A model generated the notes under the pieces. It saw only the letters and a program-made list of their open reading frames with translations. It was not told the DNA's origin and ran no database searches. This document shows positions 20,051 through 38,414 of a stretch of DNA of 38,414 nt, one piece after another. Source of the stretch: an uncultured Burkholderiaceae bacterium (GTDB lineage Bacteria > Pseudomonadota > Gammaproteobacteria > Burkholderiales > Burkholderiaceae_C); the NCBI GenBank assembly GCA_964517545.1, contig CAZFET010000001.1:1-38414 (forward strand), in the 5' to 3' direction. Position 1 is the stretch's first letter; each line of letters begins with the position of its first letter. The translations under genes and the position numbers were made by a program.

Positions 20051-20111
20051 CGCCGGCCGGCCGGTTTGCAAGGGGCTTCGGCCCCTTGTTTGTTTGTGCA
20101 GGAGCAACCCG

Positions 20112-21461: not shown

Positions 21462-21478
21462 CGCAACGGAGTGAAGCC

Positions 21479-22077: not shown

Positions 22078-23891
22078 CAGGCGCGCCGCAGGCGCACGGT
22101 GAAGACCGAGCCGGCGCCCGGCGAGCTGGTGGCCTCGATCGAGCCGCCCATGCGCTCGAGCAGCGCGCGTGCGATGGCCAGCCCGAGCCCGGTGCCGGCG
22201 CTGCGCGGCGTGTCCGCGTCGGCACGCTCGAACGGCTGGAACAGCCGCGCGAGCTGCGACGAGCTCAAGCCGGCGCCGGTGTCGGCGACGGCCACCCGCA
22301 CACCCGCGTCGTCGGCCCGGCACTCGATCGACACGCGGCCGCCCGGGCGGTTGTAGCCGATCGCGTTGGCCAGCAGGCTCACGAAGACCTGGCGCAGCCG
22401 GCGCGGATCGGCCAGCACGACCAGGTCGGCCGCGCCGACCGGCCCCGCGAGCTCGATGCCATGCAGCGCCCGCAGCGGCTCGACGCGCTCGATCGCCGCC
22501 GACAGCACGTCGGCCAGCGAGACCTCGCGCGAGACCAGCCCCGACGCGTCGGCGCCGGTCAGGTCGAGCACGTCGTTCACCAGTTCGAGCAGATGCCGCC
22601 CGCCGCCGAGGATGTGCTCGACGCGTCGCGCCTGCGCGGCACCGAGCGGCTCGTCGCGATCGATCTGCATGAGCTGCGCGAAGCCGATCACCGCATTGAG
22701 CGGTGTGCGCAGTTCGTGGCTCACGCGCGAAAGGAACTCGGTCTTGGCGCGCGCCGAGCGCTCGGCGGCGTCCTTCTCGCGCTGCAGCTGCTCGATGCGG
22801 ACCTGCCCGGAGACGTCGCGCACGATGCCCACCACGCGAACGTTGCCGTCGGCGCCGTGCTGCGGCGCGCCCATCAGCTCGAGATGGCGCGCGCCGGCCT
22901 CGGGCGCACCGACGCGGCAGCGCAGGGTGAAGGGCTCGCCGTGGTCGGCTGCGGCGGCGCGCAAGGTCCGCTGCGCGTGCTCCCGGTCGTCGGGGTGCAC
23001 GCGCTCGAGGGGGCCGCGCAGCGGGAGCGCGTCGGCGTGGCGATCGTCGGCGCCGCACAGCGCGCGCGCACGCGGGTCGAGGCGCACGTGGTCGCGCGAC
23101 GTGTCCCAGTCGAGCACGCCCATCCCGACCGCTCGCGCCGCCAGTTCCCACTCGGCGTTGCGGGCCTGGAGCGCGGCCTCCGCCTGCTGCCGACGCCCCA
23201 CGGCATGGCCGATGAACCAGGCGCCGGCGGCCGCGATCAGCGCCGCCATCCCACCCAGCGCCAACATCAGCACGGCCAGCCGCTGCCCCGCGGCATCGCC
23301 CAGGCGCTGCGAGAAGCGCCGCTCCGCGTCGGTGAGGCGGCGGTCGAGCGCGTCGATCTGCTCCAGCACGGCAGCCTGGCGCGCCGCGTCGAAGTCGCCG
23401 CGCGCGCGTTCGTTCACCACCTGCCGCGCCAGGTCGTCGAGCGCCGCGATCAGGCGGTCGCCCTCGGCCCAGGCGTCGATCGAATCGGCCATCAGCGCGC
23501 TGCCGCCGAACCAGCGATACAGGCGGATCATCCCCGGCACGTCGTCGGGATGGTTGCCGCCGGCGATGAAGCCTTCGCGCACCCGCGCGAGGTCCGGCGT
23601 CGGGCGGTCGAGCTCGATGCGCGCGCGGTGATCGCCCAGCGGCACCGCGAGGGCGTCCTTGTAGCGCTGCAGCGCGGCCTCGTCGCCGCCGGCCACGTAG
23701 CGGCGCAGCTCCGCCACCGCTGCCTTCTGCGCCTTGCTCCACAGGCTCTCGCCCGCGACGTAGGCGCGCGCAGCCGACAAGGTCAGCAAGGTCGCCGCCG
23801 CCACCGTGAACAGCAGCGCCACCGAAGCGACGTAGACGCCGATCAGCAGCAGTCGAAAGCCGGGGACGGAGGACAGGGACGGCATGTGCAA
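22077..23891 (-). CDS. sensor histidine kinase (two-TM periplasmic sensor domain, PAS, HisKA, HATPase_c)
   Basis: 604-aa ORF with H-box SHELRTPLN, N-box LLANAIGYN and G-boxes DTGAGL / GTGLGLAI. No response regulator gene is present in the window. Confidence 0.9.
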   Translation of the reverse strand: MHMPSLSSVPGFRLLLIGVYVASVALLFTVAAATLLTLSAARAYVAGESLWSKAQKAAVAELRRYVAGGDEAALQRYKDALAVPLGDHRARIELDRPTPDLARVREGFIAGGNHPDDVPGMIRLYRWFGGSALMADSIDAWAEGDRLIAALDDLARQVVNERARGDFDAARQAAVLEQIDALDRRLTDAERRFSQRLGDAAGQRLAVLMLALGGMAALIAAAGAWFIGHAVGRRQQAEAALQARNAEWELAARAVGMGVLDWDTSRDHVRLDPRARALCGADDRHADALPLRGPLERVHPDDREHAQRTLRAAAADHGEPFTLRCRVGAPEAGARHLELMGAPQHGADGNVRVVGIVRDVSGQVRIEQLQREKDAAERSARAKTEFLSRVSHELRTPLNAVIGFAQLMQIDRDEPLGAAQARRVEHILGGGRHLLELVNDVLDLTGADASGLVSREVSLADVLSAAIERVEPLRALHGIELAGPVGAADLVVLADPRRLRQVFVSLLANAIGYNRPGGRVSIECRADDAGVRVAVADTGAGLSSSQLARLFQPFERADADTPRSAGTGLGLAIARALLERMGGSIEATSSPGAGSVFTVRLRRA

Positions 23892-23949
23892 CGACAGCGC
23901 CCGGCAGGCGGCGACGCAGTGTCGCCGATGCGCCCGCCGGCCGCGAGGC

Positions 23950-23999
23950 GGCTATCGATGTTTTTGCGAAACGCAATCGATGAGCCTGTCGCGATAGCC
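23950..23999 (+). promoter_or_regulatory. candidate OxyR/LysR-type operator upstream of ahpC
   Basis: 8-bp inverted repeat GGCTATCG (23950-23957) / CGATAGCC (23992-23999). It encloses two ATCGATG copies 22 bp apart (23954-23960 and 23976-23982) in an AT-richer stretch. Confidence 0.35.
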
Positions 24000-24044
24000 A
24001 ACAATCCGGGCATCGCTTCCCTGTACCTCACGAAAGGACACTGC

Positions 24045-24593
24045 ATGAAGACCGTCGGCGACAAGCTCGAAGCATTCAAGGTGACCGGCGTCAAGCCGGG
24101 GTTCAACCACCACGAGGAGAACGGCGTCCCGGCATTCGAGACGCTCACCGAGCAGAGCTTCCCGGGCAAGTGGAAGGTCATCTACTTCTGGCCCAAGGAC
24201 TTCACGTTCGTCTGCCCGACCGAGATCGTCGGCTTCGACAAGCTGGCCCGGCAGTTCGAGGAGCGCGACGCCGTGCTGCTCGGCGGCTCGACCGACAACG
24301 AGTTCAGCAAGCTCGGCTGGCGTCGCGAGCACAAGGACCTGAACCGCCTGAGGCACTGGAGCTTCGGCGACAGCAACGGCTCCCTGGTCGACCAGCTCGG
24401 CGTGCGCGACAAGACCGAAGGCGTGGCGCTGCGCGCGACCTTCATCGTCGATCCCGACAACACGATCCAGCACGTGTCGGTGAACAACCTCAACGTGGGC
24501 CGCAACCCTGACGAGATCCTGCGCATCCTCGACGGCCTGCAGACCGACGAGCTGTGCCCGTGCAACCGCACGGTCGGCGGCTCGACGCTCTGA
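24045..24593 (+). CDS. ahpC: peroxiredoxin AhpC (AhpD-dependent type)
   Basis: Frame of ORF 22461..24593 trimmed to ATG 24045, after AAAGGA. Peroxidatic Cys in DFTFVCPTE and a C-terminal ELCPCN Cys pair. Confidence 0.93.
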   Translation: MKTVGDKLEAFKVTGVKPGFNHHEENGVPAFETLTEQSFPGKWKVIYFWPKDFTFVCPTEIVGFDKLARQFEERDAVLLGGSTDNEFSKLGWRREHKDLNRLRHWSFGDSNGSLVDQLGVRDKTEGVALRATFIVDPDNTIQHVSVNNLNVGRNPDEILRILDGLQTDELCPCNRTVGGSTL

Positions 24594-24606
24594 ACGGGGG
24601 CACGGC

Positions 24607-25119
24607 ATGGAGTTCCTGCAGGCCCTGAAGGACCGGCTGCCCGAGCACGCCAAGGACATCCGGCTGAACCTCGACGCCGTGATCGCGCGTTCGAGCCTTG
24701 CGCCGGAAGACGCGCTCGGCGTCGCGCTGGCGGCGGCGTTCGCGGCGCGCTCGAAGGAGCTGGTCGACGCGTTCGAGGCGGCGGTGCCGCCGGCCGAAGG
24801 CCACGCGGCGCTCACCGCCGCGGCGCTGATGGGCATGAACAACGTCTGGTACCCGTACGTCGAGATGGCGGGCGACGACGAGCTGAAGACCCTGCGGCCC
24901 GAGCTGCGCATGAATGCCTACGCCAGCCACGGCGGCGTGAGCAAGGCGAAGTTCGAGTCGTACGCGCTGGCCGCCTCGATCGTCGGCAAGTGCCACTTCT
25001 GCGTGAAGTCGCACTTCGGCCTGCTCAAGGCCGAAGGACTCACGACGCAGCAGCTGCGCGACATTGGCCGCATCGCGGCGGTGGTCAGTGCGACGGCGCA
25101 GGTGCTGCACGCCGGCTGA
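24607..25119 (+). CDS. ahpD: alkylhydroperoxidase AhpD
   Basis: 170-aa ORF of the carboxymuconolactone-decarboxylase fold with the CxxC motif (GKCHFCVKSH). It lies 13 nt downstream of ahpC. Confidence 0.9.
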   Translation: MEFLQALKDRLPEHAKDIRLNLDAVIARSSLAPEDALGVALAAAFAARSKELVDAFEAAVPPAEGHAALTAAALMGMNNVWYPYVEMAGDDELKTLRPELRMNAYASHGGVSKAKFESYALAASIVGKCHFCVKSHFGLLKAEGLTTQQLRDIGRIAAVVSATAQVLHAG

Positions 25120-25972
25120 CCCACCAGCCTTCGGCGCTGTACAGCGCCAGCGCGGCCCAGATCAGCGCGAAGCCGGCGATCCGCGAGCCCGAGAAGGGCT
25201 CGCGGTACAGCCACACGCCCAGCACGAGCTGCAGGGTCGGGCCGATGTACTGCAGCAGCCCGAGCAGGGTGAGCGTGATGCGCCGGGCGCCGTAGGCGAA
25301 CAGCAGCAGCGGCGCGGCCGTCAGCGGGCCGGCGAACACCAGCCACGCGACGAGCGACGGGTCACCGGTGGCCAGCGCGCTGTCGCCGCGCCAGGTCCAC
25401 GCGGCCAGCAGCGGCACCGTCAGCGAGGCCAGCAGCAGGGTCTCCAGCGCGAGGCCTTCCAGGGTGCCCAGCGGTGCGGTCTTGCGGATCAGGCCGTACA
25501 GGCCGAAGCTCGCGGCCAGCGCGAGCGCCACCCACGGCACCTGAGCGCCTTGCCACGTGAGCCACAGCACGCCGAGCGCGGCCAGCGCGACCGCCGCCCA
25601 CTGCGCGCGGCGCAGCCGCTCGTGCAGCACCAGCCAGCCGAGCAGCACGTAGACGAGCGGGTTGATGAAGTAGCCCAGGCTCGCGTCCACCACGCGGTCG
25701 TTGTTCACCGCCCACACGTACAGCAGCCAGTTGCCCGACACGAGCGCCGCGCTCAGCGCAAACAGCCCCAGCAGCTTCGGCCGGCGCAGCACGTCGCGCA
25801 GCCAGGCGAGGCGCCGCATGGCCGCGAGCACGATCAAGAGGAACACCATCGACCACACCGCGCGGTGCAGCACGATCTCGAACGGCTGGGCCGCGGCGAC
25901 CTGCTTGAAGTACAGCGGGAACAGGCCCCACATGAAGTAGGCCGCGGCGGCCGCGAGGACGGCGTGATTCAT
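25085..25972 (-). CDS. rarD: RarD (EamA/DMT-family) transporter
   Basis: Track ORF 25085..26269 trimmed to ATG 25972 (MNHAVLAAAAAYFMWGLFPLYFK...GYFINPLV). The 3' end overlaps ahpD by 35 bp in convergent orientation. Confidence 0.85.
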   Translation of the reverse strand: MNHAVLAAAAAYFMWGLFPLYFKQVAAAQPFEIVLHRAVWSMVFLLIVLAAMRRLAWLRDVLRRPKLLGLFALSAALVSGNWLLYVWAVNNDRVVDASLGYFINPLVYVLLGWLVLHERLRRAQWAAVALAALGVLWLTWQGAQVPWVALALAASFGLYGLIRKTAPLGTLEGLALETLLLASLTVPLLAAWTWRGDSALATGDPSLVAWLVFAGPLTAAPLLLFAYGARRITLTLLGLLQYIGPTLQLVLGVWLYREPFSGSRIAGFALIWAALALYSAEGWWVSRRAAPAPSH

Positions 25973-26026
25973 CGGCCGGGATTGTCGCGGTTGGCAGCGG
26001 GCGTCCGGCGGCGCATCATCGCGGCC

Positions 26027-26296
26027 GTGCCCGTGGTCGAGTTCACGCCGCAGTTGCGGCGCTTCACCGAGACGCCGCGAGTCGAGTGCGGCGCCACGAC
26101 CTTGCGCGACGCGCTCGAGGCCGCGTTCGACGTGAACCCGCGCCTGCGCGGCTACGTGCTCGACGACCAGGGCCACCTGCGGGCCAACGTGGTCGTCTTC
26201 ATCGACGGGCGGCGCAGCACCGACCGCACGGGCCTGGCCGATGCGCTGAGCGCGTCGAGCCGCGTGCACGTGATGCAGGCGCTGTCGGGCGGCTGA
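26027..26296 (+). CDS. MoaD/ThiS-family ubiquitin-like beta-grasp protein with a C-terminal Gly-Gly
   Basis: Frame of ORF 25064..26296. About 89 aa from GTG 26027 (or GTG 26033), ending ...VHVMQALSGG immediately before the stop. Confidence 0.7.
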   Translation: MPVVEFTPQLRRFTETPRVECGATTLRDALEAAFDVNPRLRGYVLDDQGHLRANVVVFIDGRRSTDRTGLADALSASSRVHVMQALSGG

Positions 26297-26337
26297 GCGG
26301 CGACCGGGCGACGGCGGATCGAACTTCGGAGGCGGAC

Positions 26338-27414
26338 ATGAACGATCGGGCGTGGGTGGCGACGCGCAAGGGACTCATCGAGCTGCGGCGCCGCGGCAGC
26401 GCGTGGAAGATCGAGCGCACGAGCTTCCTCGGCGAGCCCGTGTCGATGCTGCTGCCGCCGGTCGGAGGGTCGGGCCGCATGCTCGCCGCGCTGGCGCTCG
26501 GGCACTTCGGCGTGAAGGTGCACGCCTCCGACGACGGCGGCGCGACCTGGGCCGAGGTGGCCACGCCGGCCTATCCGGCACAGCCGGCCGACGCCGCAGG
26601 GCCGCCGTGGAAGCTGGTGCAGATCTGGTCGATGACCGAGGCGCACGGCACGCTGTGGGCCGGCACCTTGCCCGGCGGCCTGTTCCGCTCGACCGACGGC
26701 GGCCGCTCGTGGGAGCTGGTCGAGGCGCTGTGGAACCGCGCGGAGCGGCTCGAGTGGTTCGGCGGCGGCTACGACGTGCCAGGCATCCACTCGCTGTGCC
26801 CGCATCCGCAGCGCGAGGGCGACCTGCTGGTGGGCATCAGCTGCGGCGGCGCCTGGGGCACGCGCGACGGCGGCCGCAGCTGGTCGCTGCAGGCGCAGGG
26901 CATGGTGGCCGCCTACATGCCGCCGGAGCAGGCCGGCAACCCGAACACGCAGGACCCGCACCTGATCGTGCGCTGCCCGGCGGCGCCCGACGTGTTGTGG
27001 TGCCAGCATCACAACGGCATCTGGCGCTCGACCGACGGCGCCGCGTCGTGGCAGGAGGTGACCGGCGCGCCGCTGTCGAACTTCGGCTTTGCGGTGGCCG
27101 TGCACCCGGCCGACGCCGACACCGCGTGGTTCGTGCCGGGCGTGGCCGACCAGTGCCGCGTGCCGGTGAATGGCGCGCTGGCCGTCAACCGCACGCGCGA
27201 CGGCGGGCGCAGCTTCGAGACCCTGCGCGAGGGGCTGCCGCAGCGCGACTGCTACGAGCTCGTCTACCGCCACGGTCTGGCGGTGGCCGGCGATGGCCGC
27301 TCGCTGCTCATGGGCAGCACCACCGGCGGGCTCTGGGCGAGCGCCGACGGCGGCGACGCGTGGAGCACCGTGTCGCTGCATCTGCCGCCGATCTTCGCGG
27401 TGCGCTTCGGCTGA
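26338..27414 (+). CDS. BNR/Asp-box repeat beta-propeller protein (sialidase-like fold)
   Basis: Frame of ORF 26086..27414 trimmed to ATG 26338, after GGAGG. Six Asp-boxes (S/T-x-D-x-G-x-x-W/F): SDDGGATW, STDGGRSW, TRDGGRSW, STDGAASW, TRDGGRSF and SADGGDAW. There is no signal peptide. Confidence 0.85.
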   Translation: MNDRAWVATRKGLIELRRRGSAWKIERTSFLGEPVSMLLPPVGGSGRMLAALALGHFGVKVHASDDGGATWAEVATPAYPAQPADAAGPPWKLVQIWSMTEAHGTLWAGTLPGGLFRSTDGGRSWELVEALWNRAERLEWFGGGYDVPGIHSLCPHPQREGDLLVGISCGGAWGTRDGGRSWSLQAQGMVAAYMPPEQAGNPNTQDPHLIVRCPAAPDVLWCQHHNGIWRSTDGAASWQEVTGAPLSNFGFAVAVHPADADTAWFVPGVADQCRVPVNGALAVNRTRDGGRSFETLREGLPQRDCYELVYRHGLAVAGDGRSLLMGSTTGGLWASADGGDAWSTVSLHLPPIFAVRFG

Positions 27415-27454
27415 CGGCGCGACGAGCCGCGCGGCGCGGCCGGACGGTCGGCGG

Positions 27455-27496
27455 GAGCGGGCCGACCGGAGCGGGCCGACGGGAACGCGCCGACGG
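27455..27496. repeat. 14-bp period x3 imperfect tandem repeat
   Basis: GAGCGGGCCGAC at 27455 and 27469, and GAACGCGCCGAC at 27483, in the 250-bp intergenic region after the BNR gene. Confidence 0.6.
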
Positions 27497-27577
27497 CGGC
27501 ACGCCGGCTGTTGCAGGTCGTCGCGCGTCACCGACAGCCGCGGCCCTCGATTCGCGGGTGCCACTCTTGTTGGGGAA

Positions 27578-27639
27578 TGACACCGTGCCGGCCGCTTCAC
27601 AGAATTCCTGTCACGCGGGGCCGGCACTATGGAGTGTCA
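27578..27639 (+). promoter_or_regulatory. extended imperfect hairpin/palindrome in the leader of the downstream membrane-protein gene
   Basis: Outer stem TGACAC (27578-27583) / GTGTCA (27634-27639). Inner 9-bp stem GTGCCGGCC (27585-27593) / GGCCGGCAC (27619-27627). Apical stem ACAG (27599-27602) / CTGT (27608-27611). Confidence 0.35.
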
Positions 27640-27664
27640 GTCCCCCGCGGGCAGGAGAGCCGCC

Positions 27665-28207
27665 ATGCCGCAGACCTTCAACGTCGGAGCCCGATCGCTG
27701 TTCGTCACCGTCACGGCGTGGGTGTTCATCGCGCTGAGCGGCCTGGCCACGGTCTCGGCGCTGATCCAGAACGCCGCCGTGGCGTCGCTGCTGCCGGCGC
27801 CCGTCGCCGCGATGCCGTCGCAGCCGCTGCCGCTGCTCACCGGCCTGCTGCTGGGCTACCTGCCCTGGGTCGTCGGATTCGGCCTGCTGATGTCGGTGGC
27901 GACGCTCGCCTCGGCCATCGGCCTGCTGCTGCGCCTGGACTGGGCGCGTCGTGTGTTCATCGGCCTGCTGGCCGTGGCGATCGTCTTCAACCTGCTCGGC
28001 CTGTGGCTGCAGCACGAGGTGGTGCAGTCGCTGGTGCAGGCCACGATCGGCCGCGCGCAGCTGCCGCCTCAGGCGGCCGACGTGTTCGGCGGCTTCGTGA
28101 CCGTGGCGCGCGTCCTCGCGGTGGCGCTCACCCTCGTGGCCTGCGGACTGCTCGGCTGGATCATCCGGCGACTGATGTCGCCGCTGGTGCGCCAGGAGTT
28201 CGCGTAG
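27665..28207 (+). CDS. hypothetical integral membrane protein (about 4 TM segments)
   Basis: ORF 27629..28207. I prefer ATG 27665, 6 nt after AGGAGA (27653-27658). Hydrophobic segments include FVTVTAWVFIALSGLATV and LLTGLLLGYLPWVVGFGLLMSV. Confidence 0.65.
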   Translation: MPQTFNVGARSLFVTVTAWVFIALSGLATVSALIQNAAVASLLPAPVAAMPSQPLPLLTGLLLGYLPWVVGFGLLMSVATLASAIGLLLRLDWARRVFIGLLAVAIVFNLLGLWLQHEVVQSLVQATIGRAQLPPQAADVFGGFVTVARVLAVALTLVACGLLGWIIRRLMSPLVRQEFA

Positions 28208-29051
28208 CCCACAGCCCGGCGCCGACCAGCGCCAGCGCCAGCCACAGCCGCGCCGGCACCGGCTCGCCGAGCACGGCGGCGCCGAGCGCCAGCGCCGTCA
28301 GCGGGCTGAGCGCGAGATAGAGGGTCACGCGCGACGCGTCGGCATGGCGCAGCGCCCACAGCCACAGCCAGTAGCCGACGCCGCTGGAGGCGCCGACCGC
28401 GCCCAGCACGATCCAGCCCGACACGCTGATCTGCGGCAGCCGCGCGAAGCCGCCTTCGATCCACGCGCCGGCGGCGAGGCTCGCGACCGCGGCGCCGAGC
28501 GCCCAGACCGTGAGGGGCAGCAGCGGATGGCGCCGCAGGTAGGGCCGGTACAGCACGCTGCACACGGCGCCCGTCAGCGCGCTGGCGAGCACGGCGAGTT
28601 CGCCCCACCAGGCGCTGCGCGCCGCGACGCCGGAGCCCAGGGCGACCGCCACACCGCCCAGCGTGAGGGCCACCGCGACGAGCTTGCGTGCGGTGAGGCG
28701 CTCGTGCCCGAGCGCCGCCGCCACGCCGAGCGCCAGCAGCGGGAAGCTCGCGAAGATCAACGCGGCGGGCGCGGCCGGCACGCTCTGCAGCCCGAAGTTC
28801 AGCAGCGCGATCAGCAGCGCGAACTGGCCGATGCCGAGGGCCATCGCCGGCAGCCGGTCGCGCCGGTCGATCGCGCGCACGGCCCGCCAGTCGACGAAGG
28901 GCAGCAAGGTCGCCAGCGCGACCGCGTAGCGCACGAAGGCGATCGAGGCGGGGCCGAGCTCGTCGACTACCGCGCGCGTGCCGACGATGGCCGCGCCGAC
29001 CTGCACGCCGACCGCGGCCGCCGCCGCGAGGGCGAGGCGGGCCGCGTTCAA
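28161..29051 (-). CDS. EamA/DMT-family transporter
   Basis: C-terminal 296 codons of track ORF 28161..29510, with about 10 TM segments. The proposed TTG start at 29051 overlaps the GNAT stop (TTGA). Confidence 0.8.
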   Translation of the reverse strand: MNAARLALAAAAAVGVQVGAAIVGTRAVVDELGPASIAFVRYAVALATLLPFVDWRAVRAIDRRDRLPAMALGIGQFALLIALLNFGLQSVPAAPAALIFASFPLLALGVAAALGHERLTARKLVAVALTLGGVAVALGSGVAARSAWWGELAVLASALTGAVCSVLYRPYLRRHPLLPLTVWALGAAVASLAAGAWIEGGFARLPQISVSGWIVLGAVGASSGVGYWLWLWALRHADASRVTLYLALSPLTALALGAAVLGEPVPARLWLALALVGAGLWATRTPGAPAATSVAG

Positions 29052-29665
29052 AGCGCCAGTTCCCAGGTTTCGCCGACGAGGTCGTGGCCGAAACTGTGGT
29101 GCGGCTCGCTCGCGACGAGCCGGTAGCCGGCGCGCTGGTAGATCGCGCGCGCGGCGAGCAGCACGCTGTTCGTCCACAGGCGGATACGTGCGTAGCCGGC
29201 CGCTTTCGCGAAGGCGGTGCACTCGTCGGTCAGGCGCCGGCCCAGCCCGAGGCCGCGAGCCGCCGGCTCGACCAGCAGCATGCGCAGCTGCGCCACCCGC
29301 GGAATCGGACGCCCGGTGCGCTCGTCGCGCGCCTGCACGAGGAAGACGCAGCCGGCGCGCGCGCCGTCGTGCTCGGCGATCCACGCGGCTTCGCGCCCGG
29401 CCTCGAACTGCTCGACGACGCGCGCCGCGATGTGGGCCACCAGCGCCTCGAAGCTCATGTCCCAGCCGTACTCCTGCGCGTACAGCGCGCCGTGGCGCGA
29501 GACCACCCATCCGATGTCGCCGGGCTGCAGCGAGCGCAGGATCACGGGCTCATCGCGCCGGCGCTCGTGGCCGAGCAGCCGTCGCTGCAGCACGCCGATG
29601 CGCCGCGCGCAGAAGCGGTCGAACGCGCGCAGCGCGTCGACGCGATCGGATGCGGTGCCGGCCAT
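29048..29665 (-). CDS. GNAT-family N-acetyltransferase with a vestigial MarR-type N-terminal segment
   Basis: Track ORF 29048..29845 trimmed to ATG 29665. Acetyl-CoA motif VEPAARGLGLGRRL. The PGDIGWVVSRHGALYAQEYGWD block is typical of the acetyltransferase half of bifunctional MarR-GNAT proteins. Confidence 0.85.
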   Translation of the reverse strand: MAGTASDRVDALRAFDRFCARRIGVLQRRLLGHERRRDEPVILRSLQPGDIGWVVSRHGALYAQEYGWDMSFEALVAHIAARVVEQFEAGREAAWIAEHDGARAGCVFLVQARDERTGRPIPRVAQLRMLLVEPAARGLGLGRRLTDECTAFAKAAGYARIRLWTNSVLLAARAIYQRAGYRLVASEPHHSFGHDLVGETWELAL

Positions 29666-29805
29666 GCGGGCCAGTATCGGCAGGGCCCCTGACCTTGGCA
29701 ACGACCGGCGTCGCGGCTGGGCTCCGGCGAGGGCGCCGGGGTCGAGCTCCGGCCGGCGGACGCCGGTGGCGTGAAGCGGGGAGCCCGTTCGCAGGTTCGC
29801 GCGAG

Positions 29806-29847
29806 GCGCGGAGGCTCGCGCCAAACGCGCCGAGGCTCGCGCCAAAC
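29806..29847. repeat. 21-bp tandem duplication
   Basis: GCGCGGAGGCTCGCGCCAAAC (29806-29826) and GCGCCGAGGCTCGCGCCAAAC (29827-29847), matching at 20 of 21 positions. Confidence 0.7.
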
Positions 29848-29849
29848 GA

Positions 29850-29874
29850 AACGGCCGCGCAGTGCGCGGCCGTT
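29850..29874 (-). terminator. intrinsic-terminator-like hairpin downstream of the cytochrome c gene
   Basis: An 11-bp perfect stem AACGGCCGCGC / GCGCGGCCGTT with a 3-nt loop. On the minus strand it is followed by TCGTTTGG. A second hairpin CTGGCCC-GT-GGGCCAG lies at 29882-29897. Confidence 0.55.
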
Positions 29875-29905
29875 CGATGGCTGGCCCGTGGGCCAGGCCG
29901 GTCGA

Positions 29906-30217
29906 TCACTTCTGGGTCATGATCCACTGCACCAGCTGCTTGGCCTCTGCCGGAGAGACCTGGGCATTGGCCGGCATCGGGACCGGGCCCCAGACGCCCT
30001 GGCCGCCCTTGATGATCTTCTCGGCGAGCTTGTCGACGGCGTCCTTCTGACCGGCGTACTTGGCTGCGACGTCCTTGTACGACGGCCCGACGAGTTTCTT
30101 GTCGACGGCGTGGCAGGCCATGCAGTTCTTCTTCTGCGCCAGGTCGGCGCTGGCGAACGCGGCGGTCGAGGACAGGCCGGCGACGGCAACGGCCAGGGTG
30201 GCAAGCAGCGGCTTCAT
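29906..30217 (-). CDS. class I c-type cytochrome (c551/c552-like), periplasmic
   Basis: 103-aa ORF with a signal peptide (MKPLLATLAVAVAGLSSTAAFA), heme motif CMACH and a distal Met in PMP. Confidence 0.9.
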   Translation of the reverse strand: MKPLLATLAVAVAGLSSTAAFASADLAQKKNCMACHAVDKKLVGPSYKDVAAKYAGQKDAVDKLAEKIIKGGQGVWGPVPMPANAQVSPAEAKQLVQWIMTQK

Positions 30218-30321
30218 GGGGTCCTTTCGGGTTGGCGTGAATTGCGAGCTTTACAGCGCGGTCAACGGATTGTAAAAGCCCCGGTTGACAGGGCGCGCCG
30301 CGCCCGTGGAGAAGCCCGCAC

Positions 30322-30750
30322 ATGTTCTTCGTCGTGGTCGGCACGCTCATGGTGCTGCTGAAGTTCGCCGACGTCTCGCCGGTCGCGGGCTGGTCGTGGT
30401 GGGTCGTGCTCGCGCCGTTCGGCCTGGCGGTGCTGTGGTGGTCGTATGCCGACAGCTCGGGCCTCACGAAGAAGCGCGAGATGCAGAAGATGGAAGACCG
30501 CAAGGAGGCGCGGCGCCGCAAGGCGTTCGAGGCCCTGGGCATCGACCACCGCCGCTTCGACCGCAACAAGCGCAAGGCCGCGGCCTACAAGGCGCAGCAC
30601 CAGGAGAAGGTGCGCGAAGTCGAGGCCGAACGCGCGGCCGAGCGCCAGCGCCACGCCGACACGGTCACGCGCAGCAGCCAGTTCCACAGCCAGGTCGAGT
30701 CGACCAACTTCACCGACCTCGAAGAGCCGGTGCCGCCGAAGAAGCTCTGA
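30322..30750 (+). CDS. small Trp-rich membrane protein (TIGR04438-like) with a long charged tail
   Basis: 142-aa ORF. The N-terminal hydrophobic region has clustered Trp (AGWSWWVVLAPFGLAVLWWSY). It is followed by a Lys/Arg/Glu-rich region. Confidence 0.75.
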   Translation: MFFVVVGTLMVLLKFADVSPVAGWSWWVVLAPFGLAVLWWSYADSSGLTKKREMQKMEDRKEARRRKAFEALGIDHRRFDRNKRKAAAYKAQHQEKVREVEAERAAERQRHADTVTRSSQFHSQVESTNFTDLEEPVPPKKL

Positions 30751-30760
30751 ACGGGCTCCG

Positions 30761-32446
30761 TCAGTCGCGGTCGAGCACGGCGCCGGTGCTGGCGCTCGAC
30801 GTGTTCTTCGCGAACTTGGCCAGCACGCCGCGCGTGTAGCGCGGCTTCGGCGCCTGCCACGCGGCGCGTCGGCGTGCGAGCTCCGCGTCGTCGACGTTGA
30901 GCTGCAGCAGCAGCTTGTGCGCGTCGATCGTGATCGAGTCGCCCTCGCGCACGAGCGCGATCGTGCCGCCGACCGCCGCCTCGGGTGCGACGTGGCCGAC
31001 GACCATGCCCCACGTGCCGCCGGAGAAGCGACCGTCGGTGACGAGGCCCACCGACTCACCGAGCCCCTGGCCGATGAGCGCGGACGTCGGCGCGAGCATC
31101 TCCGGCATGCCGGGCGCGCCCTTCGGACCGAGGTAGCGCAGCACCATCACGTCGCCCGGCTGGATGCGGCGATCCATGATCGCCGCCAGCGCGCTCTGCT
31201 CGTCGTCGAACACGCGCGCGGGTCCGGTGATCACCGGGTTCTTCAGCCCGGTGATCTTGGCGACGCTGCCTTCGGTCGACAGGTTGCCCTTGAGGATGGC
31301 GAGGTGGCCCTGTGCGTACAGCGGCCGGTCGACCGGGCGGATCACGTCCTGGTCGGCGCGCGGCGCCGCGGGCACGTCGGCGAGGTTCTCGGCCAGGGTC
31401 TTGCCGGTCATGGTGATGCAGTCGCCGTGCAGCAGGCCGGCGTCGAGCAGCAGCTTCATCACCTGCGGAATGCCGCCGGCGCGGTGCAGGTCGATCGCGA
31501 GGTACCGGCCCGACGGCTTGAGGTCGCAGATCACCGGCACCTTGCGGCGCACGCGCTCGAAGTCGTCGATGCTCCACTCGACGCCGGCGGCGTGCGCGAT
31601 GAACGGCTCGTGCAGCACCGCGTTGGTCGAGCCGCCGGTGGCCATGATGACGGCGACGGCGTTCTCGATGCTCTGGCGCGTGACGATGTCGCGCGGTTTC
31701 AGGTCGCGGCGCACCGCCTCGACCACGGCGCCGGCGGCGCGATCCATCAGGGCGACGATCTCGTCCTCGACGTTGGCCATCGTGCTCGAGCCCGGCAGGC
31801 TCATGCCGAGTGCTTCGAACGCGCTGCTCATCGTGTTGGCCGTGTACATGCCGCCGCAGGAGCCGCTGCCGGGGATGGCGCGGCGCTCGATCTGGCAGAA
31901 GTCCTCCTCGCTCATGCGGCCGGCGGAGAACTCGCCCACCGCCTCGAACACGCTGACGATGTTGAGGTCCTTGCCCTTGTAGTGACCGGGCAGGATGGTG
32001 CCGCCGTAGACGAAGAGCCCCGGCACGTTGGCGCGCAGCATGCCCATCATCGCGCCGGGCATGTTCTTGTCGCAGCCGCCGATCGTGATGACGCCGTCCA
32101 TCCACTGGCCGCCCACGCAGGTCTCGATGCAGTCGGCGATCACCTCGCGCGAGACCAGCGAGTACTTCATGCCCTCGGTGCCCATCGCCATGCCGTCGCT
32201 GATGGTCGGCGTGCCGAAGACCTGCGGGTTGGCGCCGGCCTTCTTCAGCGACGCGATCGCGGCGTCGGCGAGCCGCTGCAGCCCCGAGTTGCACGGCGTG
32301 ATGGTCGAGTGGCCGTTGGCCACGCCGATCATCGGCTTGGCGAAGTCCTCGGGCTGGTAGCCCATGCCGTAGAACATCGAGCGGTTGGGCGCGCGTGCGA
32401 CGCCTTCGGTGATGTTCCTCGAGCGGGGATTGAGCTTGTCGGTCAT
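30761..32446 (-). CDS. ilvD: dihydroxy-acid dehydratase
   Basis: 561-aa ORF: [30 protein letters not shown]..., [20 protein letters not shown]. Confidence 0.96.
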
Positions 32447-32547
32447 GGCAGGTACGGCGAAGGGGCGGGCGGGGCGGCGGGCAGGAGAGTGCGCAGCGGC
32501 GGTGCTGCCGGGGCATTCTAGGTCGCGCTGCTAGCATTCCGGCCGTC

Positions 32548-33351
32548 ATGCTCGTCCACCCGCAGTTCGACCCCATCGCGATCCGCATCGGATCGTTCGG
32601 CATCCACTGGTACGGACTGACCTACCTGGTCGCCTTCGGCCTGTTCCTGTGGCTCGCGACCCTGCGCACGCGCCGCGAGCCGTACGCGTCGGCCGGCTGG
32701 TCGCGGCGCGACGTCGAGGACCTGCTGTTCTGGGGCGTGGTCGGCGTGATCATCGGCGGGCGCCTGGGCTACGTGCTGTTCTACAAGCCCGGCTACTACG
32801 CCGCGAACCCGCTCGAGGCGCTCGCGGTGTGGAAGGGCGGCATGTCGTTCCACGGCGGGCTGCTGGGCGTGATCGCGGCGATGGCGTGGTTCGCGCGCTC
32901 GCGCGCGCGGCCCTTCCTGCAGGTGGCCGACCTCGTGGCGCCGTGCGTGCCCGTCGGGCTCGCGAGCGGGCGGCTCGGCAACTTCATCAACGGCGAGCTG
33001 TGGGGCCGCGCCGCCGATCCGTCCTTGCCGTGGGCGATGGTGTTCCCGCAGTCCGGCACGCCGATCCCGCGGCATCCGTCGCCGCTGTACCAGTTCGCGC
33101 TCGAAGGGCTGCTGCTGTTCGTGCTGCTGTGGTGGTTCGCGCGCCGCCCGCGGCCGCTCGGTGCGGTGTCGGGCGCCTTTCTCGTGGGGTACGGCGTGCT
33201 GCGCTTCGTGGCCGAGTACTTCCGCGAACCCGACAGCTTCCTCGGTCTGCTCGCGCTGAACCTCAGCATGGGGCAGTGGTTGTGCCTGCCGATGATCGCG
33301 GCCGGCGCGTGGCTGTGGGCGACGAGCGCAAAGCGGGGGGCCGGCGCATGA
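32548..33351 (+). CDS. lgt: prolipoprotein diacylglyceryl transferase
   Basis: 267-aa ORF with [26 protein letters not shown] and [13 protein letters not shown]. Confidence 0.93.
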
Positions 33352-34052
33352 GACAGGTCTTCCTCGACACCGAGACCACGGGCCTCAGCCCGGAGAGCGG
33401 CGACCGCATCATCGAGATCGGCTGCATCGAGATGGTCAACCGCCGGCTCACGGGTCACAACAAGCACTTCTACGTCAACCCCGAGCGCCGCAACAGCGAA
33501 GACGCGGTCAAGATCCACGGCCTCACCGACGAGTTCCTCGCCGACAAGCCCGTGTTCGCCGCGATCGCCGACGAGCTGCTCGAGTACCTGGCCGGCGCCG
33601 AGGTGGTGATCCACAACGCGAGCTTCGACGTCGGCTTCCTCGACATGGAGCTGCGCCGTCTCGGCAAGCCGCCGTTCGCCAGCTTCGTCGAGCGCGTGAC
33701 CGACAGCCTCGCCATGGCGCGCGAGCAGTTCCCGGGCAAGTCGAACTCGCTCGACGCGCTGTGCAAGCGGCTCGAGGTCGACAACAGCAACCGCACCTTG
33801 CACGGCGCGCTGCTCGACGCCGGGCTGCTGGCCGAGGTGTACATCCGCATGACGCGCGGCCAGGAGTCGCTGGTCATCGACCCGACCGACGCCGGCCCGC
33901 AGATCGCGACCGCGGAAGACGTGGACCTGGCGGCGTTCGAGCTGCCGGTGATCGAGCCCGATGCCGACGAGCGCGCGGCGCACGAAGCCGTGCTGGCCGA
34001 GCTCGACAAGGCCTGCGGCGGCGCGGCGGTGTGGCGCAGGGCCATGGCATAA
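33348..34052 (+). CDS. dnaQ: DNA polymerase III epsilon subunit (3'-5' proofreading exonuclease)
   Basis: Frame of ORF 32649..34052 trimmed to ATG 33348, giving an ATGA overlap with the lgt stop. Exo motifs: [18 protein letters not shown] and [14 protein letters not shown]. Confidence 0.93.
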
Positions 34053-34078
34053 TTCGCGCCTTGCCGCGCCAGCGGCGC

Positions 34079-34153
34079 GGGTGGTTAGCTCAGCGGTAGA
34101 GCACTGCCTTCACACGGCAGGGGTCGCAGGTTCGAACCCTGCACCACCCACCA
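34079..34153 (+). tRNA. tRNA-Val (anticodon CAC)
   Basis: GGGTGGTTAGCTCAGCGGTAGAGCACTGCCTTCACACGGCAGGGGTCGCAGGTTCGAACCCTGCACCACCCACCA folds as a 75-nt cloverleaf with all four stems Watson-Crick paired. Anticodon loop TT-CAC-AC, and CCA is encoded. Confidence 0.93.
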
Positions 34154-34169
34154 TCGGATCTCCGGACTC

Positions 34170-34391
34170 ATGACCAAAGCCACTACGACCCGCATCACGG
34201 GCGACGGGCTGCGTTACGCGAGCAAGGTCGGCGGCTCGCCGTTCATCGGGCGGGGCAACACGCGGTCGTGCTTCAAGTGCGGCCGCCACCGCTCGCCCGA
34301 CCAGCTCCAGAGCAAGCGGCTGCTCGGCAAGGTGCAGATGGTGTGCAAGCCCTCGTGCGAGGAACTGCGCGCCGCCGAGAACTCGCGCTGA
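34170..34391 (+). CDS. hypothetical small Cys4 (zinc-ribbon-like) protein, 73 aa
   Basis: ATG ORF beginning 16 nt after the tRNA-Val 3' end. Codons are strongly GC3-biased. Cys pattern CFKC...VCKPSC. Confidence 0.55.
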   Translation: MTKATTTRITGDGLRYASKVGGSPFIGRGNTRSCFKCGRHRSPDQLQSKRLLGKVQMVCKPSCEELRAAENSR

Positions 34392-34448
34392 CGTCTCGCG
34401 GGTCTCGCGGCCGCGCGCCGGTGTTCGTCCCGTCGCCGACCCGGCGCT

Positions 34449-35189
34449 TCAGGCCGCCGAAGCGTCGCGCCACACGCCGTCCAGCAGCAGCTGGTGCGGC
34501 CTGAACTGCGCCTTGTAGGCCATCTTCGTGCTCTCGGCGATCCAGTAGCCGAGGTACACGTGCGGCAGCCGCAGCTGCCGCGCCTGGTCGATCTGCCACA
34601 GCACGCTGTAGGTGCCGTAGCTCGCGCGCGGCTCGGGCTCGTAGAAGGTGTACACCGCCGACAGCCCGTCGTTCAGGATGTCGAGGATCGACACCATCTT
34701 GAGCGGCCCGAGGCCGCCCGGCGCCGGCTCGCGGAACTCCACCAGCCGCGAGTTCACGCGGCTTTGCAGCAGGAACTGCGTGTACTGGTCGATGCTGTCG
34801 TGGTCCATGCCGCCGCCGGCGTGGCGGCCGGCCTGGTAGCGCAGGTAGAGCTGGTAGTGCTCGGGCACGAAGCACAGACGCAGCACCCGCGCCTGCAAGG
34901 CGTGATGCGCCGTCCACGCGCGGCGCTGGCTGCGCGACGGCTCGAAGCGCTCGACCGGCACGCGCAGCGGCACGCACGCGCGGCAGCCGTCGCAATAGGG
35001 GCGGTAGGTGAACATGCCGCTGCGCCGGAAGCCGTTGGCCACCAGCCCCGAGTACGCGTCGGCATGGATCAGGTGGCTGGGCGTGGCCACCTGCGAGCGC
35101 GCCATGCGCCCCGACAGGTAGCTGCACGGGTAGGGCGCCGTCGCATAGAACTGCAGCGACGCGAGCGGGAGCTCCTTCGGGTGGGTCAT
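34449..35189 (-). CDS. bpt: arginyltransferase-family aspartate/glutamate leucyltransferase (N-degron pathway)
   Basis: Track ORF 34449..35237 trimmed to ATG 35189. Motifs: [29 protein letters not shown] and YLGYWI. Confidence 0.88.
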
Positions 35190-35953
35190 GGCGCGGTGCT
35201 CGCGGGCGCGGCCAGTCGTTCGTCGAGCTGCGCCCACAGCCGTGGATCATAGGTCCAGCGTGCGATCGCCGGAGGGCCGGGGACATGGGTGGCGAGATGG
35301 CGCTCGAACTCGTCGCGCGGGATCTCGCGCGCGCCCATCGACGCCAGGTGCTCGGTGGACTGCTGGCAATCGATGAGCGGGACGTGGTGCGCGCGACACA
35401 GCGCCACCAGCGCGGCCAGCGCGATCTTCGACGCGTCGGTGCGGCGCGCGAACATCGACTCGCCGAAGAACATGCGCCCGAGGTGCACGCCGTACAGGCC
35501 GCCGGCGAGTTCGCCGTCGATCCAGGTCTCCACGCTGTGTGCCTTGCCGGCCGCGTGCCACGCGCAGTACGCGTCGACCATCGCCGGCACGATCCACGTG
35601 CCGTCCTGCCCCCGGCGCGGCGTGCGCGAGCAGGTCTCGATCACCTCGCGGAACGCGCTGTCGCAGCGGATCTCGCAGCCCGGCGTCGAGACGAAGCGCG
35701 CGAGCGTCTTGCGCAGCGAGCGCGTCAGGCGGAACTCGCCGACCGGCAGCACCATGCGCGGATCGAGCGTCCACCACAGCACCGGCTGGCCTTCGCCGAA
35801 CCACGGGAACACGCCGTGCGAGTAGGCCTCCTCGAGCCGCGCGAGATTCAGCGTGCCGCCGGCGGCCAGCAAGCCCGGCGCCTCGCTCTGCGCGGGCAGC
35901 GCGAGGTGCGTGGGCGGCAGCGGCGTGTCGTCGTCGATCCAGGCGATGTGCAC
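35186..35953 (-). CDS. aat: leucyl/phenylalanyl-tRNA--protein transferase
   Basis: Track ORF 35186..36223 trimmed to GTG 35953. The upstream part of the track ORF is an Arg/Ser/Cys-rich shadow. Motifs: [10 protein letters not shown] and FFGESMF. The stop overlaps the bpt start (ATGA). Confidence 0.85.
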
Positions 35954-35981
35954 GCCGCCAGCATAGACGCGCCGCGCCGGC

Positions 35982-36245
35982 TCACGCGGCCGACAGCTTG
36001 CCGCGCCGCTGCAGCAGCAGGTCCTGCAGCCACAGGGCCGAGTGCGACAGGCCGTCGAACTGGCGCTTCGGCTGGTGCCGCAGCCCGATCGCGACGCGGC
36101 CGGTCCACCAGATGGTGCGGCCGCTGCCCGGCAGCACGACGGGGCCGACATGCCCGGGCGGGATGTCGACCGGCGGCGCCGCGTGCGGCCGCCGGATCGA
36201 CGGCGCGGGCGCGGCGGGGACATCGAGGCGGTGATCGTCGAGCAT
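35982..36245 (-). CDS. hypothetical protein (87 aa)
   Basis: Track ORF 35982..36278 trimmed to ATG 36245, 8 nt after GGGAG. By my reading nearly all codons end in G or C (only GAT, GAT and CAT do not). I recognise no domain. Confidence 0.45.
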   Translation of the reverse strand: MLDDHRLDVPAAPAPSIRRPHAAPPVDIPPGHVGPVVLPGSGRTIWWTGRVAIGLRHQPKRQFDGLSHSALWLQDLLLQRRGKLSAA

Positions 36246-36405
36246 GTGAACTACTCCCGAAGTGACGGCGCAGATCATTGCGGCACCTCGGGGTCGGGAT
36301 CACTGCCCCGTTTGGGGGACGCCGGCTCGCGCCCGCCCCCGCAACCCGGAGGGAGCGGCGCGCGGGCGTGGTCACAAATGGGTCGGCGGTCGCTCGCTCA
36401 CCCAT

Positions 36406-36425
36406 GCGCACGATCGAGCGTGCGC
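36406..36425 (-). terminator. hairpin just downstream of the Bug-family gene stop
   Basis: GCGCACG (36406-36412), 6-nt loop, CGTGCGC (36419-36425). There is no clear U-tract. Confidence 0.3.
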
Positions 36426-36435
36426 GGTCGCGCCG

Positions 36436-37413
36436 TCAGGAGTCGACGCGCACCTGAGCATCCGGGACGACCCGCGTCCACTTCGCGATCTCGCTGTCGA
36501 TGAACTGCGAGAACTTCTCGGTCGTGCCGCCGCCGTCCTCGGCGCCGAACGAGTCGAGGCGCTCCTGCACGTCGGGCATCGCGAGCACCGTGTTCACGTC
36601 GGCGTTGATCTTCTTCGCGATCGGCGTGGGCAGCTTGCCCGGGCCGGCGAGCCCGTACCACGTCGTGGCCTCGAAGCCGGCGAAGCCCTGCTCCTGCATC
36701 GTCGGCACGTTCGGGTGGCCCTTGGCGCGCTTCGCGCGCGTCTGCGCGACGGCGATCACCTTGCCGCTCTTCACGTGCGGCGTCGCCGCGGTCATCGTCT
36801 CGAAGCTGTACTGGATCTGGCCGCCGATCAGGTCGGTGAGCAGCGGCCCCGAGCCCTTGTACGGCACGTGCAGCGCGTCGACCTTCGCGCGCAGCTTGAA
36901 CATCTCCAGCGCGAGGTGCTGCGCCGAGCCGGCGCCAGCCGAGCCGAAGCTCACCCGGCCCGGCTGCGCCTTGCACAGCGCGACGATGTCCTTCACCGTC
37001 TGCGCCGGTTGCGCCGTGTTGGCGATCAGCAGGTTCGGCGTCACGCCCACCAGCACGATCGGCACGAAGTCGCGCGCCACGCTGTAGCGCAGCTTGGGCT
37101 GCAGGCTGGGCGCGAGCGCGTGGCTGTTGATGTGCGCCATCAGCAAGGTGCTGCCGTCGCTCGGCTGCTGCGCGACGTACTCGGCCGCCAGCACCCCGGC
37201 GACGCCGGCCTTGTTCTCGACCACGACCTGCTGCCCCCACATCGCGCCGAGCTTCGCACCCACCACGCGCGCGAGCGCATCGGTGCCGCCGCCCGGCGGG
37301 AACCCGACGACGATGCGCACGGGGCCGCTCGGCCAGGTCTGCGCGAACACGCGCGGCAGGCCGAGCGCGGCCACGCTGGCGCCGGCGGCGCGGAGGACGG
37401 ATCGTCGATGCAT
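36436..37413 (-). CDS. Bug/TctC-family tripartite tricarboxylate transporter substrate-binding protein
   Basis: Track ORF 36436..38103 trimmed to ATG 37413, after GGGAGA. Signal peptide MHRRSVLRAAGASVAALGLPRVFAQ. Motifs: VVGFPPGGGTD and VPYKGSGP. Confidence 0.9.
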   Translation of the reverse strand: MHRRSVLRAAGASVAALGLPRVFAQTWPSGPVRIVVGFPPGGGTDALARVVGAKLGAMWGQQVVVENKAGVAGVLAAEYVAQQPSDGSTLLMAHINSHALAPSLQPKLRYSVARDFVPIVLVGVTPNLLIANTAQPAQTVKDIVALCKAQPGRVSFGSAGAGSAQHLALEMFKLRAKVDALHVPYKGSGPLLTDLIGGQIQYSFETMTAATPHVKSGKVIAVAQTRAKRAKGHPNVPTMQEQGFAGFEATTWYGLAGPGKLPTPIAKKINADVNTVLAMPDVQERLDSFGAEDGGGTTEKFSQFIDSEIAKWTRVVPDAQVRVDS

Positions 37414-37463
37414 CGTGAGGTCTCCCTGGAGGTGATCTGTCGGTGCCGGCGCGCGTCCCGGCG

Positions 37464-38297
37464 TCACGCCGCCGCGCGCAGTGCCGAACCCTGTGGATGC
37501 GACGCGAAATGCTCCATCGCCGCCTGCACGCCGCTGCCGGCCAGCTTGACGCCGGCGAGCTTCAGCCCCATCTCGACACCCGCGACCATCGCCACCAGGG
37601 TGAGGTCGTTGCTGTCGCCGAGGTGGCCCATGCGGAACATGCGGCCCTTGAGCTTGCCGAGGCCGGTGCCGAGCGACAGGTCGAAGCGCTGGTGGATCAG
37701 GCGCCGCACCGCGTCGGCGTCGACGCCCGGCGGCGTGATCACGCCGGTGAGCACCGGCGAGTACACCGCCGGATCGGCGCACTGGATCGGCAGGCCCCAC
37801 GCGCCGACGGCCGCGCGCACGCCGGCGGCCCAGCGCCGGTGGCGCGCGAACACGTTGTCGAGGCCTTCGTCCAGCAGCATGTCCAGCGCCTCGCTCAGCC
37901 CGTACAGGAGGTTGGTGTTCGGCGTGTACGGCCAGTAGCCGTCCTTGTTCATCTCGACGATCTCGTCCCAGGCCCAGAACGAGCGCGGCAAGGTGGCCGA
38001 CTTCGACGCCTCCAGCGCGCGCGGCGACAGCGCGTTGAAGCCGATGCCCGGCGGCAGCATGAGGCCCTTCTGCGAGCCGCTGACCGTGACGTCGACGCCA
38101 CATTCGTCGGGGCGGTAGTCGGCACTGGCGAGGCCCGAGATCGTGTCGACCATCAGCAGCGCCGGGTGCTTCGCCGCGTCGATTGCCTTGCGCACCTTCT
38201 TGATCGCGGTACGCAAGGTGGAGCGCTGGCTCATGTTGTGAGCACGCTGCTCGGTTGCTTGACGGGCACGCTTGCGGGCTTGGACGGAATTGGCCAT
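37464..38297 (-). CDS. chimeric ORF: the N-terminal ~40 residues of ribosomal protein bS20 (rpsT) fused in frame to the C-terminal ~235 residues of a class-V (serine/alanine--glyoxylate type) aminotransferase
   Basis: Track ORF 37464..38354 trimmed to ATG 38297. Codons 1-39 read [39 protein letters not shown], a bS20 N-terminus, and use CAA/CGT/GCA/GCT/TTG codons. From [15 protein letters not shown]...[13 protein letters not shown] (PLP Lys) onward it is an aminotransferase in GC3-rich codons. Confidence 0.75.
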
Positions 38298-38330
38298 ATC
38301 GATATCCGGTAGATCTGGGGAAAGCGCGAG

Positions 38331-38359
38331 ATTATAAGGGGGTCTTCCACCCATTGCAA
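38331..38359 (-). promoter_or_regulatory. near-consensus sigma70 promoter of the rpsT-type start
   Basis: On the minus strand: TTGCAA (38359-38354), a 17-nt spacer, then TATAAT (38336-38331). The -10 element lies about 34 nt upstream of ATG 38297. Confidence 0.6.
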
Positions 38360-38414
38360 GCGGCTTCTGCCAAGCGCATCCCGGATACCATACCGGCCAT
38401 GAATCTGCTCCGTG

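Follow-up and report, generated by a model that had tools for sequence, protein, structure and literature searches.

Inter-genome chimeric contigs are a described product of metagenome assembly. In benchmarks, low-coverage populations are prone to yield them because unrelated reads share k-mers (PMC7881036), and GUNC (PMC8201837) screens for such contigs across whole genomes. Two ordinary gene arrangements are also closely related to the locus examined here: the rpsT-murJ locus of Sulfuritalea-type Rhodocyclales, and the cluster of Sphaerotilaceae in which genes for a GntR regulator, a class V aminotransferase, a TctC-family receptor, and the Leu/Phe-tRNA protein transferase Aat lie together. 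We analyzed a stretch of 38,414 nucleotides (hereafter called the window) whose end combines parts of both arrangements in a single open reading frame (ORF). Judged on sequence data, the window is very probably an inter-genome chimeric contig in the public record, presumably derived from a metagenome-type assembly.

Content of the fusion ORF

The ORF in question and the features that surround it are given below in window coordinates.

36436 to 37413, minus strand: gene for a TctC/Bug-family receptor of 325 amino acids, the native downstream neighbor of the aminotransferase gene (Pfam TctC, E 4e-57)
37464 to 38297, minus strand: fusion ORF of 277 codons (277 amino acids; ORF list and translation)
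37464 to 38175, minus strand: aminotransferase residues 178–413 and the stop codon (BLASTP against the intact proteins P0002 and P0046; nucleotide identity to loci L001 and L033–L035)
38097 to 38130, no strand: cluster of six differences from intact alleles, adjoining the junction (mismatch list and alignment)
38176 to 38196, minus strand: junction, the 21-nt word GGTGCGCAAGGCAATCGACGC with codons for VRKAIDA, common to rpsT and the aminotransferase gene in the same frame
38197 to 38297, minus strand: rpsT codons 1–34, the bS20-specific part (Pfam and NCBIfam S20; amino acids identical to those of bS20 from locus L008)
38331 to 38359, minus strand: Sulfuritalea/Rhodocyclales-type promoter of rpsT, TTGCAA-17-TATAAT (consensus scan)
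38399 to 38414, plus strand: murJ start with its first five codons, MNLLR (ATGAATCTGCTCCGTG), cut by the window end; part of the Rhodocyclales-type segment and placed as in relatives

The original prediction described the ORF as the N terminus of ribosomal protein bS20 fused to the C-terminal portion of a class V aminotransferase, and Pfam, NCBIfam, and BLASTP agree with this description. Residues 1–41 of bS20 are followed by residues 178–413 of a 413-amino acid aminotransferase. The Pfam family Ribosomal_S20p matches ORF residues 2–43 with a score above the gathering threshold (E 8.5e-11), such that the first ~40 residues are indeed significantly bS20-like, and the NCBIfam S20 model (model size 84) matches residues 1–43. 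Aminotran_5 of Pfam follows the S20 part, and a BhcA-like class V aminotransferase model of NCBIfam aligns its profile positions 145–388 of 395 with ORF residues 26–268. Residues 1–34 are specific to bS20, whereas the VRKAIDA sequence at residues 35–41 is common to both parents. Aminotransferase-specific sequence starts with A42, which corresponds to residue 178 of 413 in BLASTP alignments with the intact 413-amino acid proteins P0002 and P0046.

Neither parent protein is complete in the fusion. With regard to bS20 (PF01649/TIGR00029), the ORF covers only profile positions 1–42 of 83 and does not reach the full S20 domain of ~83 to 86 residues. In contrast, bS20 from L008 matches model positions 1–84 of 84. 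With regard to the AGXT/SGAT-type enzymes (PF00266), the fusion covers only profile positions from ~145/154 onward and lacks the complete PLP fold, although the remnant keeps the PLP-lysine motif SGSQK; the intact homolog P0002 spans positions 7–388 of 395 of the aminotransferase profile. The missing parts, which had been anticipated from the ORF alone, are bS20 residues 42–86 and the N-terminal 170 residues of the aminotransferase, and the divergent GntR neighbor is absent as well. A more specific assignment of the enzyme as the L-aspartate–glyoxylate aminotransferase BhcA (NF045640) was rejected, given that the fragment scores 272 bits and intact P0002 scores 439 bits against an equivalog cutoff of 650. 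The intact parent is an ordinary AGXT/SGAT-type class V enzyme of a GntR-aminotransferase-TctC cluster.

A public protein of 256 amino acids (P0001, from NCBI) is encoded by one 40,980-nt contig, starts at Met22 of the ORF, and is 100% identical to it across the junction. Because P0001 spans the junction, the chimera is present in the deposited sequence and is not a product of how the window was cut. Exact-protein look-ups for the source contig with the 277- and 296-amino acid ORFs, the TctC protein, and P0001 gave no match. Note that the listed ORF is longer, its frame running on to an upstream ATG at 38354 (296 amino acids; added segment 38298–38354, minus strand), which overlaps the promoter. 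The same extension occurs in the intact rpsT gene of L008, where it yields a 105-amino acid ORF, and therefore this ATG is no real start codon.

Lineage of the two sides

The last ~240 nucleotides of the window have the organization expected for an rpsT-murJ locus. The promoter that had been recognized by eye lies at 38359..38331 on the minus strand and matches the consensus at 10 of 12 positions, whereas shuffled sequence averages 0.1 such sites. Likewise, the apparent divergent murJ start at 38399 was read correctly and is the same as in the relatives L008 and L002. A murJ-length ORF starting MNLLRALATVSG... diverges from rpsT in L008, and a MurJ protein (PF03023) is called at the equivalent position in L002.

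We scanned 185,579 species representatives (one genome per species) with a 30-mer from the promoter region in which two N positions were allowed. The sequence was found in 29 loci, most of them labeled Sulfuritalea sp., Rhodocyclales, or Rhodocyclaceae; five carry broader labels (two "uncultured beta proteobacterium" and one each of "Betaproteobacteria bacterium," "Pseudomonadota bacterium," and "Burkholderiaceae bacterium"), and no Sphaerotilaceae occur among the 29 loci recovered from these representatives. The DNA fetched around these loci has a GC content of 55 to 65%. The best match is L008 (MHZX01000047.1, Rhodocyclales bacterium RIFCSPLOWO2_02_FULL_63_24, 63% GC), which is 97.1% identical in nucleotide sequence over positions 38171–38412. 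Its bS20 protein of 86 amino acids has an N terminus identical to that of the window. The remaining rpsT-type loci are 81 to 91% identical to the rpsT segment, and none of the rpsT-type loci exhibits further similarity to the rest of the window. A protein search with the 41-amino acid bS20 N terminus recovered only seven truncated proteins and led to loci L002 and L003. The bS20 proteins of Comamonadaceae and Sphaerotilaceae presumably carry a lysine-rich extension at their start (MA.AKPKKKNPRLASGRKR...), which would set them apart from the bS20 start in the window. As a separate observation, positions 6001–6260 of L002 (a 164-kb JGI metagenome contig) contain an rpsT gene called as two ORFs of 56 and 30 amino acids, both of which hit Ribosomal_S20p. 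This frameshift-like split probably reflects an indel error in the assembly rather than a real division of the gene.

The other 38.2 kb of the window have a different character. GC content is 72.2% over positions 1–38170 and 58.8% over positions 38175–38414, a contrast to be read with the caveat that some lowering of GC is expected in every genome over 240 nucleotides made up of a promoter and a gene with high expression. All 1-kb bins in the rest of the window fall between 66 and 78% GC. The nearest relatives of the dihydroxyacid dehydratase IlvD (30761–32446) are from Calidifontimicrobium, Azohydromonas, Ideonella, Methylibium, Aquabacterium, and Rubrivivax (85 to 88%), and those of the aminotransferase are from Aquincola, Roseateles, Acidovorax, and Variovorax. 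On the basis of such sequence relationships, we assign the 38.2 kb at 72% GC to Sphaerotilaceae (Burkholderiales). The NCBI taxonomy lists Azohydromonas under Burkholderiales/Sphaerotilaceae and Sulfuritalea under Nitrosomonadales/Sterolibacteriaceae, and thus the two sides differ even in order.

The original prediction took the rpsT locus to be the native one. This view does not hold for a ~240-nt piece of a Sulfuritalea-type lineage that is 97% identical to MHZX01000047.1 and is attached to 38.2 kb of Sphaerotilaceae DNA. Vertical inheritance of a native locus cannot account for 97% nucleotide identity, intergenic stretches included, with a genome that is 9 GC points lower and belongs to another order. 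The switch in codon style that had been noted is indeed present at the junction. However, given the lineage mismatch, its cause is a switch of organism and not a difference in expression level only.

Several other features of the Sphaerotilaceae side were recorded. GC content dips to 66 to 67% at 20001–22000 and 24001–25000, against a background of 72 to 75%, around a gene for a CCG-domain protein (20094–21461); no Rhodocyclales-type similarity was found at these dips. The window encodes two paralogous dehydratases of the IlvD/Edd family, one of 605 amino acids (2100–3917, plus strand) and one of 561 amino acids (30761–32446, minus strand), the latter being the conserved ilvD beside lgt. Two N-end-rule transferase genes adjoin each other in an ordinary arrangement (34449–35950, minus strand), namely aat (35186–35950) and a bpt-like gene for an ATE-family arginyl/leucyl transferase (34449–35237). 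Between the TctC gene and aat, an 87-amino acid ORF (35982–36245, minus strand) has no Pfam hit and is called in five same-species assemblies, which says little about its coding status because these assemblies are ~99% identical.

The junction and its surroundings

Assemblies of the same species from four sequencing runs, represented by loci L001 (SRR11582161), L033 (SRR18749964), L034 (SRR13001968), and L035 (SRR13001969), are 98.0 to 99.3% identical to the window. All four retain the native gene order, in which a GntR gene (minus strand) is followed by an intact 413-amino acid aminotransferase gene, the TctC gene, the 87-amino acid ORF, and aat. Synteny with these close relatives breaks exactly at 38196 in four of four cases. 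A further assembly, L036 (ENA ERZ27247351, contig k141_825171), is 99.79% identical over 12.8 kb (25381–38141) and ends at the equivalent of window position 38141, which is 35 nt short of the 21-nt word. The 325-amino acid TctC gene follows the intact aminotransferase gene in the four loci above and is the same in L036. A sixth sequence, L037 (JGI 3300025310), is 99.6% identical over 22547–33431, and together with L036 it backs up the Sphaerotilaceae part of the window.

The alignments of aminotransferase type end at 38196 (4/4 loci) and those of rpsT type end at 38171 (31/31 loci), and thus the two overlap across the junction word. The original prediction had placed a microhomology junction in a VRKAIDA sequence carried by both parent families, and this sequence corresponds precisely to the 21-nt word at 38176–38196. 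The region is translated as (K/S)VRKAIDA in both genes, with no difference in frame, and differing bases flank the word on both sides in both parents. L008 carries the word of the window exactly. The four intact aminotransferase alleles match it at 20 of 21 positions, with G rather than A at 38184, such that their exact identity with the word is limited to stretches of 12 and 8 nt. However, the rpsT alleles L011 and L016 have the exact aminotransferase-type 21-mer, which establishes that natural alleles of the two genes do include pairs identical over all 21 nt. A scan of JGI metagenomes for an aminotransferase allele with GCA (A at 38184) gave no hits. Note also that rpsT and the aminotransferase gene use the word in one common frame and for one common heptapeptide, and therefore an in-frame fusion is automatic and carries no evidential weight.

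The junction itself appears to be confined to one sequence. Exact and wobble-tolerant patterns spanning it yielded no hits elsewhere among genome representatives and JGI metagenome contigs, and the protein that crosses it forms a one-member cluster from a single contig.

Sequence variation is concentrated next to the junction. The window differs from L034 at 23 positions over 3.1 kb, seven of which are in 38097–38184; six of these make up the cluster at 38097–38130, and the A at 38184 completes the set. Within the cluster, four synonymous differences spaced over 34 nt are common to the window and L036 and absent from L001 and L033–L035, and thus represent real strain variation. The other two are found in the window only. 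They cause the substitutions H199P (38110) and W202C (38100) less than 100 nt from the junction, at residues that are invariant in the other 120 homologs. Unique nonconservative changes beside a junction resemble a low-coverage or error-containing path, whereas pseudogene decay would scatter changes across the whole remnant.

The hot spot of strain variation at 38097–38141 corresponds to L036 positions 12717–12761, where the MEGAHIT-style k141 contig ends. This population seems prone to assembly breaks at that point, and the strain variation by the junction is the probable reason.

Origin of the join and comparison with known systems

The lineages differ on the two sides, the breakpoint lies in a word that the two genes share at 20 or 21 of 21 positions, the intact gene is present in the same species elsewhere, and the junction is absent from everything else searched. 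Three properties by which a chimeric contig is judged are seen here: a different taxonomic origin of the two sides (Sulfuritalea/Rhodocyclales versus Sphaerotilaceae), a break in GC composition at the breakpoint, and a join that is not replicated in independent assemblies (four intact and one ending at 38141). Misassembly was among the explanations originally offered, and it is favored by the lineage mismatch and the intact same-species alleles.

The smallest k used by common metagenome assemblers is 20 to 21 bases. We propose that window positions 1–38196 (~38.2 kb) would come from a 72%-GC Sphaerotilaceae population and would have been falsely continued at the contig end into an rpsT-murJ piece from an unrelated Sulfuritalea-type Rhodocyclales population. 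The two sources would meet in the 21-nt VRKAIDA word, a length at which common de Bruijn-graph assemblers, in their smallest k-mer steps, may connect unrelated sequences. Microdiversity in the aminotransferase gene just downstream of the word could have caused an assembly break, leaving an open end that was then wrongly extended. Because the window has A at 38184 and the aminotransferase alleles have G, a pure graph join at k = 21 would call for A at this position on the aminotransferase side, in a variant or in a read with an error, and either one might have provided the link in the sample. A join with a mismatch inside the microhomology is also expected from real illegitimate recombination or from in vitro template switching.

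A real event would have required that a Sphaerotilaceae cell took up Sulfuritalea-type rpsT-murJ DNA and integrated it by microhomology-mediated illegitimate recombination. The incoming DNA would have taken the place of the GntR gene and of 40% of the aminotransferase gene at its 5′ end. What was left, a pseudogene fusion together with the TctC gene, would then stand under a foreign rpsT promoter of high strength. The join within microhomology, with the donor base kept at the sole mismatched position (38184), is typical of recombination, and the two unique nonconservative substitutions could mean relaxed selection on a pseudogene. However, these substitutions lie within 100 nt of the junction and are not spread across the 700-nt remnant, in four to five assemblies at 98 to 99.8% identity the gene is intact or the contig breaks off at this site, the collections searched held no second instance of the junction, and data of this kind commonly contain chimeric contigs (PMC7881036). 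We consequently hold a real event of this kind to be highly unlikely, and the rarity of transfer of a ribosomal-protein gene fragment between orders counts further against it. The inversion or deletion between a genome's own rpsT and aminotransferase loci that the original prediction had raised is practically negligible. In its favor are the microhomology and a murJ/rpsT arrangement of the usual betaproteobacterial kind. Against it, the rpsT piece, with its intergenic DNA, matches a 63%-GC Rhodocyclales MAG at 97% nucleotide identity and is nested among 29 Sulfuritalea-type species, and the contig remainder is Sphaerotilaceae at 72% GC. The two sides are therefore from different genomes. Moreover, within the window there is no reciprocal junction, no second copy of either half, and no other Rhodocyclales-like stretch.

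A chimeric molecule formed in vitro, by a template switch during library PCR or whole-genome amplification, and then assembled faithfully is less probable still than a real event. By this route an incomplete rpsT extension product would prime on an aminotransferase template. Its 3′ eight bases (ATCGACGC) match both templates, and the route accounts for an rpsT-type A at 38184 alongside an aminotransferase-type base at the next diagnostic position, 38175. Against this, a lone chimeric molecule seldom outweighs the true assembly paths unless coverage is very low, and on the contig sequence such a molecule looks the same as an in silico join. Taken together with joins in chimeric library molecules, the artefactual explanations come even closer to certainty than a misassembled contig does by itself. 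The join would have been made in silico, or else in a chimeric library molecule, with no counterpart in a cell, and most likely the fused protein occurs nowhere in nature. We conclude that the fusion is almost certainly not a real feature and that the rpsT piece is an ordinary rpsT-murJ locus of the Sulfuritalea type.

The value of this finding is in data hygiene, because a public 40,980-nt contig and the predicted protein P0001 carry a cross-lineage misjoin. Users of the record could mistake this misjoin for a gene fusion, a promoter capture, or a horizontal transfer, and it puts a fragment of a ribosomal-protein marker in the wrong bin. Where both parents use the shared word for one and the same peptide, an ORF that stays open across the junction is no evidence that the junction is real.

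Fusions made by microhomology-mediated illegitimate recombination have in common with this locus the short shared join and an in-frame hybrid ORF under the promoter of one parent. They differ in that the parents here are from different lineages and that the join here probably did not arise in a cell. Compared with the Sulfuritalea-type rpsT-murJ locus of L008, the window has the same promoter, 5′ UTR, and codons 1–41 (97.1% nucleotide identity) and an equal distance to the murJ start. However, it has only about 41 to 42 of the 86 rpsT codons, and the rest (GDKAAAQAVF...IKAL) is replaced by aminotransferase sequence. Compared with the Sphaerotilaceae GntR/aminotransferase/TctC/aat cluster (P0002, P0121, and P0122; L001 and L033–L035), the window shows ~99% identity over residues 178–413 and has the same genes downstream, whereas residues 1–170 and the GntR gene are missing and H199P and W202C occur at invariant positions. 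The window also resembles the inter-genome chimeric contigs known from metagenomes and MAGs (PMC7881036), with which it shares two lineages and two GC levels on one contig, a breakpoint in a short word that both sources probably had in common, a join that has no independent assembly support, and a short foreign part at the end of the sequence seen. It differs from these contigs in that the word is a chance 21-nt identity and not a conserved gene or mobile element. Because both unrelated genes encode VRKAIDA with the same codons, the frame stays open and a gene fusion is mimicked.
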